Assembly: GCA_045596285.1 (NCBI GenBank)
Contig: JAZOCA010000025.1
Location: 30,613 to 94,612 of the forward strand
Origin: Christensenellaceae bacterium
GTDB lineage: Bacteria > Bacillota > Clostridia > Christensenellales > Borkfalkiaceae
Reading direction: 5' to 3'
DNA: 64,000 nt
The position numbers and the translations under genes are program-made. Below the pieces are notes generated by a model. It made no database searches, was not told where the DNA came from, and was given only the letters and a program-made list of their open reading frames with translations. Shown here one piece after another: positions 6,457 to 22,147 of this stretch (positions are counted from its first letter, which is position 1; every line of letters begins with the position of its first letter).

Positions 6457-7125
6457 TCATTGAATCAAGATATTTATTTCCACTTCAATTTCGGCTGATT
6501 TATAGTTAATATAATCTTCCTTTTTTAGGTAGTCACTACTATCAACGATTATCGTTACATCGTAAGACCCAGACATCACAAGCCCCCCCAAAAACTCATT
6601 AATGCTAGAAAAACCAAGAACGCTGTATTTAGAGAAATATATCTTCTCGCCTTCATATTCACAATATAAAGGTAAAACAAAGTGGGGGTTTCCATCATAT
6701 ATGTAAACGTAACTATCGTTATCTTTATATTCAATTGCCCCATTTGGGGCTAATACCAAGGTGGGGGTTTTTCTTTCGTCAATAAATTCTACTGCGATTT
6801 TTTTTCTTGCCAGTTCTATATCCGCTTCATAAGGAATATATGCAGGATAGCGAAAAACGTTTTCCCTTTGAACTTCTTCATTTTTTATTTCGTTAACAAT
6901 TACCTTATAAAACCCCTTTGGCCGGCAAGGAATTTGAACGGAATTTTCTTTATCTTGGGCTATTTCGATCGTTTTATCAAAAATAACGCTTTCATCTTCT
7001 TCCCAAATAACAGTAATTTCAGCAACCCATTCATCTGCTCCTTTTATTAATGTACATCCGCTTAACGCAAATATCCCCATAACAACAATCAACAATAAGC
7101 ATAATTTGTTTCTTATTTCTTTCAT
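6457..7125 (-). CDS. Hypothetical lipoprotein, tandem paralog B
   Basis: 222 aa with lipobox FALSGC. It is a paralog of 7176..7841. Confidence 0.7.
   Translation of the reverse strand: MKEIRNKLCLLLIVVMGIFALSGCTLIKGADEWVAEITVIWEEDESVIFDKTIEIAQDKENSVQIPCRPKGFYKVIVNEIKNEEVQRENVFRYPAYIPYEADIELARKKIAVEFIDERKTPTLVLAPNGAIEYKDNDSYVYIYDGNPHFVLPLYCEYEGEKIYFSKYSVLGFSSINEFLGGLVMSGSYDVTIIVDSSDYLKKEDYINYKSAEIEVEINILIQ
6845..7019. repeat. 175-bp near-identical segment shared by the two tandem lipoprotein genes (copy 1)
   Basis: Aligned by eye to 7561..7735 at an offset of 716 bp, with 4 mismatches in 175 bp. The flanking gene parts are much more diverged. Confidence 0.85.
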
Positions 7126-7175: not shown

Positions 7176-7841
7176 TTACTTTACAATCTCAATATATATT
7201 TCTAACTCAATTGACTTATATTTGATATAATTTTGTTTTTCTACGTAATACTCACTATCGATTCTTATTATTACAGCATAAAAACCAACCGCAACAACCC
7301 CTCCAAAATATTCACTGATATCTGAAAGCCCATCTATTTCATATTTAGAAAAAAATATCTTCTCCCCTTCATATTCACAATATAAAGGCTTAACAAAATG
7401 GAGTTCTTCGTCATATTTGTATACGTAAGTAACGTTATCTTTATATTCAATCGCCCCATTTGGGTCTAATACCAAGGTGGGGGTTTTTCTTTCATCAACA
7501 AATTTTATGGTAACTTCTTGATCTATAACTTTAGCGCTTGTTTCAAAACTAACGTGCGCGGGATAACGAAAAACGTTTTCCCTTTGAACTTCTTCATTTT
7601 TTATTTCGTTAACAATTACCTTATAAAACCCCTTTGGCCGGCAAGGAATTTGAACGAAATTTTCTTCATCTTGGGCTATTTCGATCGTTTTATCAAAAAC
7701 AACGCTTTCATCTTCTTCCCAAATAACAGTAATTTGCGCGCTGTATTTATTAAATATTTCTAAAAACTCACAACCACTTAATAAAGAAACGTTTAAAACG
7801 CCTATTAATAATAAGCATAGTACTCGTTTGCAAATTTTCAT
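7176..7841 (-). CDS. Hypothetical lipoprotein, tandem paralog A
   Basis: 221 aa with lipobox LLSGC. It shares ITVIWEEDESV.FDKTIEIAQD...CRPKGFYKVIVNEIKNEEVQRENVFRYPA with 6457..7125. Confidence 0.7.
   Translation of the reverse strand: MKICKRVLCLLLIGVLNVSLLSGCEFLEIFNKYSAQITVIWEEDESVVFDKTIEIAQDEENFVQIPCRPKGFYKVIVNEIKNEEVQRENVFRYPAHVSFETSAKVIDQEVTIKFVDERKTPTLVLDPNGAIEYKDNVTYVYKYDEELHFVKPLYCEYEGEKIFFSKYEIDGLSDISEYFGGVVAVGFYAVIIRIDSEYYVEKQNYIKYKSIELEIYIEIVK
7561..7735. repeat. 175-bp near-identical segment (copy 2)
   Basis: See 6845..7019. Confidence 0.85.
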
Positions 7842-10191: not shown

Positions 10192-10216
10192 TAAAAAAGG
10201 CGCGGAAACCGCGCCC
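10192..10216 (-). terminator. Rho-independent terminator ending the island operon
   Basis: The minus strand reads GGCGCGG-TTT-CCGCGCC followed by TTTTTT, 9 nt after the stop at 10225. Confidence 0.8.
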
Positions 10217-10224
10217 TAAAAATA

Positions 10225-18615: not shown

Positions 18616-20076
18616 TTAGATTTCTTTTTTAAATGGGTCTACCTTTAAAAAGAATGGATTGCTTTGCTCTTTTGCTCCGTATTTTCTGGCAAGGCGAACA
18701 ATACATTCGCCAACGTCTAAATTTAAAATATCCCAGTCTTCAACAACGTTTGCTTTTTCTACGCTTTCTATAACTCCACGGCTAGAAATTGCCGAAAGAT
18801 ACGCTATTCTCTTCTTGTTTTGCCCAAGAGTGTCAACGATATATTTTCTTGTTTCATAATCGGCAACGCGATATGCAATTATAGAGGAAAAACCACTTAA
18901 AATATTTTTTGCGTTATCTTCACCGTAATTGTTAATAATTTGAGAGATGTTCTGAACGCCTATAATAAATTTAACGCCTATGCTTCTACCAAAATTAACT
19001 GCGTCGTCTATGTGATTTAAATTAGGAAGAAGTTTAAACTCATCAACTATAAAATACGCATTTCCTTTTTTACCGTGGCGACTTTCTAAAGATTCTTTAA
19101 TTGCTAAATCCACAAGTAAAGAATAAATGGGAGTTAAAACACTACCTTCCGTTATATCGTACTGAATATATATTTTTTTACCACCGCGTTCGCGAACTGC
19201 TTCACGTATAGAAAAACTACCTTCTTTTGCAAAATTACCAATAAAAATTTCATCTATTACCATTTGCAATTCTGCAATTATACCTTGCGTTTGTCCGTTA
19301 TTTTCTACTTTATCACCCGCAGTTAAATAGCTTAAAGCTCCTCTTTCTCTTTTTGAAAGCAAATATGCTAAAACATCTAAAACGTTATTAGACCTAACGC
19401 ACTCTAATCCAATATTTTCACCGTTAAATAAGGCTTTTAAAAGTTTGTTAGATAATGGCATGTCTAAAGCCATTTCACAACGTTTTAATTCACGCAAAAT
19501 GGCAGCAAAAATAGCTTTTGCCGCTTGCGGGAAGAATGGATTAGAAGATTTTTTTATTGCATCAGCAAAAATCATTCCGGCAATTTCATTAGAACTTTCG
19601 GTTAATTTATCTTCATCTAATTCTTTAAAGATATTCCATATTTCTTCTTTTGAAGAAACCTTTTCGTGCCCTTTAGCGTCTTTTAGGGGCGCGTTAGATA
19701 AAAAGATATCCTTTCTATTTTCATGACTTCCAAAAGTATTATAAAAATCACCCTTTGTGTCAAAAATAACCATTACGTCTTTTTCCGTACACTTATCAAT
19801 AAGTTGGTCGGTCATAGATAAAAAGGTATTAGTTTTTCCCATACCTATACCACCAACTATTAAAAAATGCTTACTTAAAACGTCACTATCAATTTGAACT
19901 TTTATATCTTTAAAACCCTTATCTATACCGTTAAATTCTTCTTCAGGCTCAGGTTTTACGTTCGTTTTTCCGCTTAAAACAATCTGTGGATCGCTTGCTG
20001 AATTACCGTCATAAAATTTATCATACTCTGGGCCCGTATAAACAGTTTCTATTTTGAAATCCTTTCTGTTTTGCAT
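18616..20076 (-). CDS. Soluble P-loop ATPase of the TraG/TraD/VirD4 (type IV coupling protein, T4CP) family, lacking the usual N-terminal membrane anchor
   Basis: 486 aa with Walker A GGIGMGKTN and Walker B YFIVDEF. The downstream block GRSIGVKFIIGVQNISQIINNYGEDNAKNI...DYETRKYIVDTLG aligns by eye with the TrwB/VirD4 block (GR..G....G.Q..SQL...YG...A......D..T......LG). I see no hydrophobic segment. Confidence 0.7.
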   Translation of the reverse strand: MQNRKDFKIETVYTGPEYDKFYDGNSASDPQIVLSGKTNVKPEPEEEFNGIDKGFKDIKVQIDSDVLSKHFLIVGGIGMGKTNTFLSMTDQLIDKCTEKDVMVIFDTKGDFYNTFGSHENRKDIFLSNAPLKDAKGHEKVSSKEEIWNIFKELDEDKLTESSNEIAGMIFADAIKKSSNPFFPQAAKAIFAAILRELKRCEMALDMPLSNKLLKALFNGENIGLECVRSNNVLDVLAYLLSKRERGALSYLTAGDKVENNGQTQGIIAELQMVIDEIFIGNFAKEGSFSIREAVRERGGKKIYIQYDITEGSVLTPIYSLLVDLAIKESLESRHGKKGNAYFIVDEFKLLPNLNHIDDAVNFGRSIGVKFIIGVQNISQIINNYGEDNAKNILSGFSSIIAYRVADYETRKYIVDTLGQNKKRIAYLSAISSRGVIESVEKANVVEDWDILNLDVGECIVRLARKYGAKEQSNPFFLKVDPFKKEI

Positions 20077-20090
20077 AATATCTCCTCTTC

Positions 20091-20753
20091 TTAAGCGTAA
20101 TCGCCACGTTCTTGTAAGGTTGCAATTCTTCCGTTAATTACTTCAACAAATTCATAAAAGTTTTTTTCAATAGGAATTGCATTGTAAATAATAGTAGTGC
20201 CGTTTGAAACTAAAGTCGTTCTGCGAATATGCCCGGCAGTTCCACCCATAATCGTTATATTTCCTATGGTAATTTTGTAATTTCTTGCACGATACTTAAA
20301 CGCCCTATAAATCAAATATGCCCCAAGAGCCCCAAAGAGAGCTAAAGTTAAAAAACCCCATCCCCAAATTCCTTCAACTGTAAATATAAACACACTTAAT
20401 ATCAAAGAAAATAATGAAACAATTATCCCCCAAATAAAGGCTAAATAGTTAAACGGTTTATCGTAACTTGCGCAAACGGTTCCTATATTTCTAATACTTG
20501 TACTAGCAAAAGAATAGTGGCTACCTCTATGATTTTTAGATTCTGGGTAATCTACCATAAAATATAATCGTTGTGCAGAAAGAACGAAGTATCCAACGCT
20601 TATACCTCCTTCAAACCAATCCGAAGCACCCACAAAACACTTATACACGTTTTTAGTTTCTTCATCTGGAGCTGCGTCTTCATGCCCGTAAATTCTTTTG
20701 TTGAGCCGTTGAATGACTCGCATCTGCTCTTCGGATATCTTTTTTTCAGCCAT
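20091..20753 (-). CDS. Hypothetical membrane protein with a central 2-TM hairpin; first gene of the island operon
   Basis: I set the start at MAEKKISEEQ (20753), which has AAAGGAGAAAAAAT upstream. The two hydrophobic helices are YLAFIWGIIVSLFSLILSVFIFTV and WGFLTLALFGALGAYLIYRAF. Soluble domains of about 95 aa (N-terminal) and about 70 aa (C-terminal) flank them. The stop is 14 nt before the ATPase start. Confidence 0.65.
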   Translation of the reverse strand: MAEKKISEEQMRVIQRLNKRIYGHEDAAPDEETKNVYKCFVGASDWFEGGISVGYFVLSAQRLYFMVDYPESKNHRGSHYSFASTSIRNIGTVCASYDKPFNYLAFIWGIIVSLFSLILSVFIFTVEGIWGWGFLTLALFGALGAYLIYRAFKYRARNYKITIGNITIMGGTAGHIRRTTLVSNGTTIIYNAIPIEKNFYEFVEVINGRIATLQERGDYA

Positions 20754-20793
20754 ATTTTTTCTCCTTTTTATAAAATAAAATTGTCGCAATATG

Positions 20794-20822
20794 ATTTTAT
20801 CATAATAATTAATCAAAATCAA
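20794..20822 (-). promoter_or_regulatory. Candidate sigma-A promoter of the island operon
   Basis: The minus strand reads TTGATT-17 nt-TAAAAT with an upstream TG (extended -10), about 40 nt before the ATG at 20753. Confidence 0.45.
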
Positions 20823-20921
20823 CATAATTTTACGTAGCCAAGTAAAAATAAACTTAAATAAATAAGTATAAATTAAACTACTATTAGTTAATTACCTTAT
20901 TTTTACCGATCGATATTCCTG

Positions 20922-20947: not shown

Positions 20948-20998
20948 AAACTTTTTAAGATGTGCGCAATGATAAAAAACTTCTATAATATTTATCTA

Positions 20999-21239
20999 GT
21001 CCTACACCGCCTATCGTGCCGTTAATACCGTTCATTAACTACCAACAGTCGCTTTACCTTCCCCACCACCGTGAGTTAACTACCAACAGTCGCTTTACCT
21101 TCCCCACCGCCATGAGTTAACTACCAACAGTCGCTTTACCTTCTCCACCTCCGTAAGCCAACTACCAACAGTCGCTTTAGCTTCCCCACCTCCGTGAGCC
21201 AACTACCAACAGTCGCTTTATCTTCTCCACCACCGTGAG
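20999..21239 (+). repeat. Noncoding tandem array 2: a 36-bp head plus 5 units of the same 41-bp repeat
   Basis: The head is AGTCCTACACCGCCTATCGTGCCGTTAATACCGTTCA. The units lie at 21035-21239, in the same orientation and with the same consensus as the array at 9815-10138. Confidence 0.9.
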
Positions 21240-21274
21240 TGAAAAAGTAAAATTAAAAAAATGCTTAAAATAAA

Positions 21275-21303
21275 TTGACAAAGCTATAATGCAGTAATAT
21301 AAT
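21275..21303 (+). promoter_or_regulatory. Sigma-A promoter for the THI-box leader and thiT
   Basis: Perfect TTGACA-17 nt-TATAAT. Confidence 0.7.
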
Positions 21304-21469: not shown

Positions 21470-22147
21470 ATGTCTGAACTGTTGTTTTTTAACTCTTTAG
21501 TGGAAGAAAGTTTTACCGATTACGTAACTATTTGTTCCACAATTCTAATCGTGTTGCTAATTGTTGCAATAGGCGTAATGATTGCAAAAAAGAAACTCGC
21601 AACCCAAGATATTGCCTATGCAGGCGTTGCGATATCGCTTTCTTTCGTGCTTTCGTTTATCAAATTTACACCCGTTCAATACGGTGGATCGATAACGCTT
21701 GCATCACTTGCCCCTCTGCTTATTTACGCTTACTATTTTGGCTTTGCAAAAGCGCTTGTTTGCGGTTTTATTTACGGCATTTTGCAGTTCTTGCAAGATC
21801 CATACATCCTTACACCCGCAACTTTTACGTTAGACTTTTTGCTTGCCTTTGCGTCTGTTAGCGTTATGGGGCTGTTTTCAAAAGCAAAATTAAACGTCGC
21901 AACGCTTACACTTGGCACAACGGCATCTATTGCAACAAGATTTTTTATGCACTTTATTTCTGGTATTTTATACTTTAATCACGGAAGCATCTGGGTAAAC
22001 CTACCCGCCGAAAGCGCGGTTTCATACTCATTGCTTTATCAAACGGTATATCTTGTGCCAGACTTTATAATTTGCCTTGCTGTTATGCTTATTCTTTACA
22101 AAACACGCGTTATAGAAAGAATTAAGCCAAAAAGCCTTCAAAAATAG
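21470..22147 (+). CDS. thiT: Thiamine ECF transporter S component (ThiT/YuaJ family)
   Basis: 225 aa with about 6 TM segments. GGSITLASLAPLLIYAYYFG...GFIYGILQFLQDPYILTP resembles ThiT. A THI-box-like leader lies upstream, and the ecfAA'T module is in the same window. Confidence 0.7.
   Translation: MSELLFFNSLVEESFTDYVTICSTILIVLLIVAIGVMIAKKKLATQDIAYAGVAISLSFVLSFIKFTPVQYGGSITLASLAPLLIYAYYFGFAKALVCGFIYGILQFLQDPYILTPATFTLDFLLAFASVSVMGLFSKAKLNVATLTLGTTASIATRFFMHFISGILYFNHGSIWVNLPAESAVSYSLLYQTVYLVPDFIICLAVMLILYKTRVIERIKPKSLQK

Follow-up and report, generated by a model that had tools for sequence, protein, structure and literature searches.

What can a coupling protein do when it has lost its membrane anchor and no type IV secretion system (T4SS) is encoded around it? 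This question is raised by a locus in a 64-kb stretch of DNA from Christensenellaceae bacterium (assembly GCA_045596285.1, contig JAZOCA010000025.1, positions 30,613 to 94,612; hereafter the window), where the minus strand encodes a 486-aa ATPase resembling the type IV coupling proteins (T4CPs), directly downstream of a gene for a small membrane protein, hereafter the partner. Our analysis of the ATPase, of the partner and of their neighbours in related genomes suggests that they may belong to a module, derived from T4CPs, by which monoderm bacteria export or deliver toxins, a reading to which we give about even chances. All evidence on the operon comes from sequence comparison, profile searches, structure models and genomics, and positions are those of the window.

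The kinship of the ATPase is clear. Its resemblance to TrwB and VirD4, which had been drawn by eye in the original prediction, is far above chance by profile, by sequence and by structure. In Pfam the protein matches TrwB_AAD_bind (E 2e-43, aa 62-421), T4SS-DNA_transf (1e-20) and TraG-D_C (9e-17), and its closest sequence match in the Protein Data Bank (PDB) is TrwB (E 1.5e-12). The AlphaFold2 (AF2) model is confident and complete (predicted local distance difference test, pLDDT, 85.5; predicted template modelling score, pTM, 0.86), and Foldseek aligns it with TrwB-deltaN70 (E 1.8e-18, template modelling score 0.62-0.73), with Cag-beta (1.9e-14) and HerA (5.6e-12) at lower ranks. The all-alpha domain extends over about aa 150-290 and appears in the model as a helical block at aa 149-296. 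The Walker A motif (GGIGMGKTN, aa 75-83), the Walker B motif (FIVDEF, aa 342-347) and the GR..G....G.Q..SQ....YG block, all read earlier from the letters alone, are present and invariant in an alignment of 31 homologues, which has 84 invariant columns including all catalytic motifs. Meanwhile, the curated T4CP models of NCBIfam score far below their cut-offs on this protein (TraD_Ftype 86.6 bits vs 521, CD1115 78.6 vs 250, VirD4 34.7 vs 681, TraG-Ti 32.4 vs 686). The HerA models match the P-loop region alone (aa 53-120, E 1e-5 or weaker), and neither a NurA nor a SIR2 neighbour, as in a HerA-type architecture, is present beside the ATPase.

The missing anchor is also borne out. By a crude hydropathy test the ATPase has no transmembrane (TM) segment (maximum 19-aa mean hydropathy 1.35), whereas the identical test finds 2-3 N-terminal TM segments in 7 of 7 anchored references, namely F TraD, an MPF_T VirD4-type protein, a CD1115-family protein, two MOBF-linked T4CPs, a haloarchaeal T4CP and the protein denoted P0284. 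A TM segment before Walker A is found in 0 of the 119 nearest homologues and in 1 of 121 representatives, which shows that the lack of an anchor characterises the entire clade and is no accident of the window gene. This clade is large. A word-indexed search returns 2358 relatives at E<=1e-5, the nearest 120 of them almost all 400-510 aa long, and an exhaustive HMMER search of 1.84 billion representatives, with E-value limits of 1e-30, 1e-10 and 1e-3, finds 198, 715 and 2938 clusters (50% identity), respectively.

In a simple neighbour-joining (NJ) tree (415 columns, 200 bootstraps, few references), the soluble ATPases are monophyletic in 168 of the 200 bootstraps (84%) and lie outside the TraD/MOBF, MPF_T and CD1115 references, with the subclade of the window's ATPase recovered in 99.5%. 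Their sister is the TM-anchored pair of the haloarchaeal T4CP and P0284 (joint split 93.5%), and the gene beside the sampled haloarchaeal T4CP is an annotated relaxase. Compared with the ATPase, the haloarchaeal proteins score 127-155 bits, and hundreds of T4CPs of conjugative plasmids score at most 102 bits, with 21-29% identity; the conjugative T4CPs that were sampled adjoin TraI, MobF, other relaxases, or VirB10/11. Among 72,556 plasmids the sole strong matches (235-242 bits) lie on megaplasmids of Paenibacillus and Curtobacterium, and the one inspected is typed as non-mobilizable. Since the tree and the plasmid scores both set the soluble clade apart, the ATPase, as far as so simple a tree can tell, does not fall inside a group of coupling proteins that is always encoded next to relaxases.

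The original prediction had further placed the ATPase outside any T4SS context, and here too the results agree with it. No T4SS, relaxase or integrase gene was seen in the window, where the translations were judged by eye with no per-gene profile scan; no VirB4, relaxase or other T4SS family occurs among the conserved neighbours in 78 related loci, nor any T4SS family in the precomputed Pfam lists of 6 loci. As for a phage origin, 50,697 phage records gave no tblastn match. An integrase is found 4-6 genes upstream in about ten loci, and the module thus sometimes lies within a mobile island. On the whole, the clade is found in Clostridia, Bacilli, Actinobacteria and Chloroflexi, and 223 species genomes of GTDB encode the ATPase. 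Its carriers are mainly monoderm, including many Clostridia (Oscillospiraceae, Lachnospiraceae, Ruminococcus, Faecalibacterium), Paenibacillus, Curtobacterium and Anaerolineae, together with a few short contigs binned to diderm phyla; among the cultured carriers are Faecalibacterium sp. An122, Ruminococcus callidus MSK.21.81 and Paenibacillus amylolyticus Y5S-7. Some members are unusual in architecture or setting. P0140 (540 aa) is a fusion with a C-terminal YARHG-like segment and no intervening TM helix, P0149 (806 aa) has a 400-aa disordered N-terminal extension rich in Pro, Lys and Glu, and in locus L003 (131-8099) an IS1595 transposase, an 845-aa LHH-nuclease protein and a tyrosine integrase lie directly upstream of the module.

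If the ATPase has no anchor of its own, what holds it at the membrane? The candidate is the protein encoded just upstream, which had been described as a soluble domain, a two-TM hairpin and a second soluble domain. Indeed, a TM hairpin is located at aa 103-125/130-153. The soluble N-terminal part consists of a helix and beta strands, the soluble C-terminal part of strands and a helix with the end ...LQERGDYA, and both parts are predicted from the charge distribution to be cytoplasmic (N-in/C-in). No family of Pfam, NCBIfam or PADLOC matches the protein, and a word-indexed search gave 4, then 18 relatives. Its AF2 model (pLDDT 71.8) has beta strands flanking the TM hairpin and a C-terminal helix; the Foldseek matches of this model are weak (best E 0.012, none <=0.001), and the top ones are all PH/PTB domains. 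Judged from the model, the partner is likely PH-like.

In related loci the equivalent upstream gene encodes a protein of 230-450 aa, often with a zinc ribbon and with 2-5 TM helices. This multi-TM family has a motif like YxV...G.LqVTNKRviFra, a weak GRAM match (E 0.11) and a C-terminal helix ...ELGAlIxDiQxLGDxaixKW. Compared by hhalign, the window-type family (15 sequences) and the multi-TM family (60) align over their full length at 95.6% (E 1.3e-8, 218 columns); with 5 window-type sequences the value is weaker, 78.6%. Hidden Markov model (HMM) searches over all open reading frames (ORFs) of 64 non-redundant loci with at least 3.5 kb of upstream sequence find that 60 of the 64 have a member of the partner family less than 8 kb away from the ATPase and on its strand, with the partner upstream of the ATPase in 62 of 66 cases; four high-GC loci (L049, L051, L083, L085), whose genes were read by hand, were re-counted in this way. 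Loci of the window-like subclade show either an 8-nt overlap of the two genes or a gap of 11-14 nt, and in P. amylolyticus Y5S-7 (plasmid pY5S7-1) a 2-TM zinc-ribbon partner (HMM E 4.8e-33) stands directly before the ATPase. Therefore a separate membrane protein, which was suspected from the window alone, is a conserved partner of the anchor-less ATPase, related to the 3-5-TM form of other loci. Because of its PH-like cytoplasmic domain it is probably more than an anchor.

What might the ATPase and its partner act on? To see what else recurs, genes were called in 80 genome loci and the neighbours were clustered. The common layout is the partner, a small variable protein (position -2), a variable protein (position -1) and the ATPase, often with a single-pass membrane protein after it. 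The -1 proteins, 53 in number, are mutually unrelated, with a mean column identity of 7%. Where a domain can be assigned, it marks the protein as a toxin (Tox-GHH, AHH, Endonuclea_NS_2, ADP-ribosyl cyclase, PDDEXK, SprT-like (metallopeptidase-like) and DUF6782), and among the small -2 proteins are the immunity proteins SUKH and IFS. The latter, known as immunity factor for SPN NADase, is found before ADP-ribosyl-cyclase-like toxins. The recurrence of this toxin-immunity linkage across the family suggests that toxins are the different substrate for which the ATPase had been supposed to be co-opted.

The polarity of these toxins is reversed compared with the classical systems, the toxin domain being N-terminal and the conserved tail C-terminal. 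The toxin bodies pass into acidic low-complexity sequence and then into the tails, for example ...DYDYDYGYGY, ...PKPNGMGM and ...SNDGIDR, with the form of an acidic run followed by Y.YG[YMI]G[YM]. A glycine at the fourth position from the end occurs in 62% of the -1 proteins vs at most 10% in the background, and a C-terminal G-hydrophobic-[GDSEN]-x in 52% vs 3.9%. In addition, ATPases of loci with the same tail class are 65.3% identical vs 59.4% for different classes (label permutation p<0.0005, toxin bodies without a shared BLAST match), a covariation that would fit recognition of the tail by the machinery. Overall, variable toxin domains are combined with a conserved trafficking region, in the form of shared tails and, in the subclade of the window, of a shared C-terminal region.

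Two further observations concern the small proteins. The Anaerolineae loci L031, L036, L045, L047, L069, L070 and L076 have two tandem partner paralogues, together with two consecutive small proteins with the ends ...EEDYxYGYG(Y/M), which hints that the membrane component is heteromeric and has a pair of tailed clients. At position -2, about 8-10 loci (e.g. L009 1177-1701, L054 7584-8108, L063 8374-8916, L093 10282-11429) encode a protein family of 150-200 aa, which shows the repeated pattern '...F.LS..Q.E.W..L..G...L.EI...', with two tandem copies in Paenibacillus, and may comprise adaptors rather than immunity proteins. A by-eye likeness of -2 proteins to PqqD/RRE-like peptide binders gave no match in Pfam and was dropped.

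The window has its own arrangement of these parts. The partner and the ATPase head an operon of six genes and are followed by two genes for BspA-type leucine-rich-repeat (LRR) proteins, a SUKH gene and a Tox-GHH gene, so that a known polymorphic-toxin domain stands with an immunity gene directly upstream of it (for E-values see Table 1). The gaps after the ATPase are 26, 4 and 28 nt, and then SUKH and GHH overlap shortly; these closely packed genes end in a single strong terminator. The GHH domain occupies aa 13-82 of the toxin with its GHH motif intact, and a helical and polar C-terminal region of 270 aa follows. As to the start of the toxin, the longest ORF overlaps the SUKH gene by 19 nt, while an internal ATG (MSSLKYL...) would leave an 8-nt gap, and this alternative makes the start uncertain.

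Four related loci place the window's operon in context. In L089 (ATPase 56% identical to that of the window) partner and ATPase are followed by an LRR protein, a TM-LRR protein, a SUKH protein in the same position as in the window and a Tox-GHH protein, L089_GHH337, which is 55% identical to the window toxin over the toxin domain. L088 (66%) encodes partner, ATPase, a TM-LRR protein with the N-terminus MKIPKEYGR and a 344-aa protein; L005 (54%) partner, ATPase, a 387-aa protein and a TM-LRR protein; and L091 (51%) the partner, a fusion of ATPase, TM helix and LRR (P0009) and an AHH nuclease. The toxins of L089 (GHH) and L091 (AHH) differ in their toxin domains and have about 170 C-terminal aa in common (E 5e-21), and this C-region is found again in the 387-aa protein of L005 (E 2e-11 and 9e-9).

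LRR_5 genes follow the ATPase in all four of these loci. In the window, the second LRR protein (1103 aa) has a TM segment at about aa 70-90, single-pass and N-in, and its LRR region is predicted to be extracellular. The first (1180 aa) is its paralogue (27% identity, E 7e-78). This protein belongs to a surface-adhesin family, yet it has no signal peptide and, by a crude count, 0 TM segments. The N-termini of the two (MKIPKGYGR in the 1103-aa and MKIPKEYSR in the 1180-aa protein) conform with that of the LRR protein of L088 (11492-13876) to a common motif, MKIPK(E/G)Y(G/S)R, which could be a docking or targeting peptide. P0009, a 688-aa protein found in two independent metagenome samples (L091 8030-10096; also L092), joins the ATPase C-terminus through a linker and a TM helix to LRR_5, and from this fusion the topology follows with the ATPase inside and the LRR outside. 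In the family at large, 31 of 54 well-covered loci encode single-pass proteins whose N-terminus is cytoplasmic and often a zinc ribbon, while a large part of the chain is external. Those sampled contain Amidase_3 (1.3e-34), a bacterial SH3 domain (SH3_3, 7e-7) or YARHG (1.2e-23), functions that are directed at peptidoglycan and needless for a purely cytoplasmic system.

These results can be put together as follows. The ATPase would form a hexamer with no membrane anchor of its own and would dock on the dedicated membrane protein with its PH-like cytoplasmic domain and 2-5 TM helices; the two would export the toxins of the same operon after selecting them by their C-terminal regions. Single-pass surface proteins, in the window's subclade the BspA-type LRR adhesins, would give contact with the cell wall or the target cell, and the co-encoded SUKH protein would shield the producer from the Tox-GHH nuclease. 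In this scheme we infer the docking, the recognition of the toxin tails, the translocation of the toxins and what the LRR proteins do. In systems already known, T4CPs act as receptors for the C-terminal signals of T4SS substrates, and EssC selects the substrates of the T7SS (type VII secretion system). A bolder form of the proposal, which we put forward tentatively and with rather more doubt than belief, is that the soluble ATPase and the PH-like polytopic partner might make up the core of a system for protein secretion that is self-sufficient, has no name as yet and belongs to monoderm bacteria (Clostridia, Bacilli, Actinobacteria, Chloroflexi). It would read a short acidic/aromatic-glycine tail at the C-terminus (a helical C-terminal domain in the window's subclade) and export polymorphic toxins of reverse polarity, with the LRR adhesins and cell-wall enzymes as envelope accessories. 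Such a stand-alone system would be a T4SS-independent descendant of a conjugative coupling protein, by analogy with the descent of the T7SS from FtsK.

Several points weigh against export by this module. The export itself is argued from genomics, and T4CPs are not known to carry proteins through a membrane when VirB components are missing. As a channel, a 2-TM partner would be small if it were not multimeric, and its PH-like label comes from a model of moderate confidence and weak Foldseek matches. Most of the -1 and -2 proteins have no recognisable domain, and the statistic for the covariation of tail and ATPase ignores shared ancestry. The survey of the source genome is that of the 64-kb window, and a T4SS may exist elsewhere. 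For the window itself the toxin is the weakest link, since its C-region is divergent, with a weak match (E 0.001) to the 344-aa protein of L088 (L088_344), and it ends in ...TVSSRR, without the G-hydrophobic-x-x tail.

A T4SS elsewhere is in fact the basis of one alternative, namely that the ATPase works in trans as an accessory coupling protein, tethered by the partner, and recruits toxins to a conjugative-type T4SS such as that of an integrative and conjugative element. This would parallel the VirD4/XVIPCD toxins of Xanthomonas and Stenotrophomonas, with a tethering as proposed for TraI-TraJ of pIP501, where split T4CP anchoring has been suggested; the T4CP fold with its TraG-D_C region, the integrase just upstream in about ten loci, the view confined to one window and the general knowledge that T4CPs hand C-terminally tagged substrates to VirB channels all fit it. 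Such an arrangement nevertheless appears unlikely to us, given that conserved neighbours (78 loci) and Pfam lists (6 loci) are free of VirB4, relaxases and T4SS families, the closest plasmid copies sit on non-mobilizable megaplasmids, the clade is separate from all sampled relaxase-linked T4CPs, and the module brings membrane and cell-wall accessory genes of its own. A T4CP homologue with no T4SS nearby might also be thought to be what is left of a decayed conjugative element, a coupling-protein gene minus its 5' end and with no current function. We strongly disfavour this and give it hardly any credence: the anchor-less form is kept in about 198 clusters (50% identity) with its invariant columns and catalytic motifs, the gene order is conserved with overlapping or closely spaced starts, and the ATPase model is complete.

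The effectors, being nucleases and NADases, could instead act inside the producer. A T4CP/HerA-like ATPase would then sense invading DNA at the membrane and unleash the nuclease or NADase there, as an intracellular conflict or anti-phage (abortive infection) system. PADLOC mad8 does match the ATPase (E 1.3e-17), beside the weak HerA matches; HerA-type ATPases with nuclease or SIR2 effectors are among the structural neighbours, and the islands are mobile, some with integrases. Yet PADLOC finds no other mad gene of MADS, nor another of its families, among the three other operon proteins tested, TrwB and Cag-beta are structurally closer than HerA, the effectors are polymorphic around a conserved C-terminal tail and are paired with the classic interbacterial immunity proteins SUKH and IFS, and the surface LRR, Amidase_3, SH3_3 and YARHG proteins and the ATPase::TM::LRR fusion point to the envelope, which makes this reading quite improbable. 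It is also conceivable that the surface proteins are the clients, LRR adhesins without a Sec signal and zinc-ribbon single-pass proteins being inserted or exported by ATPase and partner while the toxin-immunity pairs hitch-hike on a mobile island. The 1180-aa LRR protein, the MKIPKEYGR-like N-termini in both window LRR proteins and that of L088, the fusion P0009 and the single-pass proteins of 31 of 54 loci would be explained in this way. Here again the distribution is adverse: single-pass proteins are absent from 23 of the 54 well-covered loci while variable tailed proteins adjoin the ATPase in 53, the conserved terminal motif is on the toxins and not on the surface proteins, and LRR genes are limited to the small window-like subclade, so we regard surface clients as improbable as well. 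Toxin export or delivery by the ATPase and its partner is thus the reading we follow below.

The features of the operon are listed in Table 1.

Table 1. The six-gene operon of the window and its putative signals, in order of transcription.
Feature	Position	Strand	Basis or remark
Promoter-like site TTGATT-17-TAAAAT with TG extension	20794..20822	-	upstream of operon; consensus scan
Membrane partner, 220 aa	20091..20753	-	ribosome-binding site/start codon, AF2, hhalign, neighbourhood counts
Soluble T4CP-like ATPase, 486 aa	18616..20076	-	sequence, profile, structure, phylogeny
BspA-type LRR protein, 1180 aa	15047..18589	-	Pfam LRR_5 E 1.5e-201
Membrane-anchored BspA-type LRR protein, 1103 aa	11731..15042	-	Pfam LRR_5 E 5e-117; one TM segment
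SUKH (SMI1/KNR4) immunity protein, 145 aa	11265..11702	-	Pfam SUKH_5 9e-19, SMI1_KNR4 9e-19
Tox-GHH (HNH/EndoVII) nuclease toxin, 352 aa	10225..11283	-	Pfam Tox-GHH 4.9e-17
Intrinsic terminator, 9-bp stem (7 GC pairs) and T-run	10197..10217	-	closes operon after GHH gene

The two ORFs at the head of the operon stand as originally drawn. The longest ORF of the partner is 20091-20825 (244 aa), and the later start at 20753 is judged better, since its ATG is preceded by AAGGAG; the 14 nt between the partner stop and the ATPase ATG contain GAGGAG. The promoter-like site is weak evidence, as shuffled sequence yields such sites about as often. The other genes of the window are housekeeping genes (rplM-rpsI, truA, ecfTAA, spoIVA, sugar utilisation), and an Rfam scan of the whole window matched no family. 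An apparent synteny with ecfA-ecfT-truA, which lie near the module in the window and in locus L001, was set aside as coincidence, since order and orientation differ.

Some other features of the window may be mentioned. Between the operon start and a divergent gene at 21470, about six tandem units of 41 nt (AACTACCAACAGTCGCTTTACCTTCCCCACCACCGTGAGTT) lie in the intergenic sequence at 20996-21243, the better copies 88-100% identical, with a period that is no multiple of 3 and no match in Rfam; the divergent gene has a perfect promoter, TTGACA-17-TATAAT, at 21275-21303. Between spoIVA and the ecf operon are two tandem near-duplicate lipoprotein genes (6457-7125 and 7176-7841, 221-222 aa) with long identical stretches, e.g. 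ITVIWEEDESV.FDKTIEIAQD.EN.VQIPCRPKGFYKVIVNEIKNEEVQRENVFRYPA. Of the 32 successive 2-kb bins of the window (1-64000), 31 have a negative GC skew, and the minus strand holds nearly all genes; for these reasons the window probably lies within one replichore, with genes co-oriented with replication. The GC content rises to 0.44-0.47 at 52-56 kb.

If the proposal is true, monoderm bacteria have a new way to secrete proteins and to antagonise other bacteria, and the carriers of the module include abundant gut commensals (Faecalibacterium, Ruminococcus, Oscillospiraceae) with poorly known competitive weaponry. A conjugative coupling protein would then work without a VirB channel, which bears on whether T4CPs are receptors only or translocases. 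The C-terminal tail could be a predictive tag for new toxin and immunity families, most tailed proteins having no recognisable domain, and could serve as an export tag in Gram-positive hosts. At the minimum, thousands of genes annotated as 'type IV secretion system DNA-binding domain-containing protein' are no markers of conjugation, and surveys of the mobilome should leave them out of conjugation counts.

How does the module compare with known systems? With the T4CPs (TrwB of R388, TraD of F, VirD4/Cag-beta) the ATPase shares the fold of a nucleotide-binding domain with an inserted all-alpha domain, and the size of the soluble clade, about 430 aa, equals that of TrwB's cytoplasmic part (436-437 aa in the PDB chains). 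Their role as receptors of C-terminal substrate signals is presumed for it as well. Apart from the anchor, the clade and the NCBIfam scores, the neighbourhood differs too, the references standing beside TraI, MobF or VirB10/11 and the soluble clade beside toxin-immunity pairs. For a split anchor there is a precedent in pIP501, whose TraI has been proposed as a separate membrane anchor of the T4CP TraJ (PMC13037476). There too a Gram-positive coupling protein would sit on a separate small membrane protein, but within a complete conjugative T4SS operon of 15 genes that transfers DNA, whereas no T4SS is near the module; moreover the module's partner is PH-like, of a family without a Pfam model, and is likened to TraI by role.

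The T7SSb (EssC, LXG toxins) likewise belongs to monoderm bacteria and uses an ATPase of the FtsK/HerA superfamily and membrane partners to export polymorphic antibacterial toxins whose genes stand beside immunity genes, and PH-like accessory proteins are reported from T7SS neighbourhoods (EsaC, PMC3482391). However, the module's ATPase has a single ATPase domain and falls in the T4CP branch, its toxins vary in the N-terminal domain and are conserved in the C-terminal region, and neither a multi-domain EssC/FtsK ATPase nor WXG100 or LXG proteins occur in the Pfam results of the operon or among the conserved neighbours. A C-terminal address is used in the systems of Xanthomonas and Stenotrophomonas, where VirD4 is reported to recruit antibacterial toxins that have a conserved C-terminal region and adjacent immunity genes (PMC6759196, PMC11253643, PMC8262851). 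Those are diderm systems with a full VirB1-11 channel, an anchored VirD4 and a folded domain (XVIPCD) as signal, in contrast to the monoderm, anchor-less module and its short acidic/aromatic-Gly tail. The type VII lipase toxin TslA is reported to have the reverse domain arrangement, with the toxin N-terminal and the targeting region C-terminal (PMC10730906). This Gram-positive interbacterial toxin has the same polarity as the toxins of the module, but it is exported by the T7SS through helical partner proteins and no T4CP-like ATPase, of which the module has one. A description of the module was not found in open-access full text, including a 2012 survey of polymorphic toxins, a 2024 survey of T7SS variants, a 2025 review of T4SS nomenclature and the paper on pIP501 TraF. 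On the whole, the T4CP fold, the polymorphic toxins and the split anchor are of known kinds, while, as far as the open-access literature shows, their combination, the reversed polarity with a short tail and the independence from a T4SS are undescribed.

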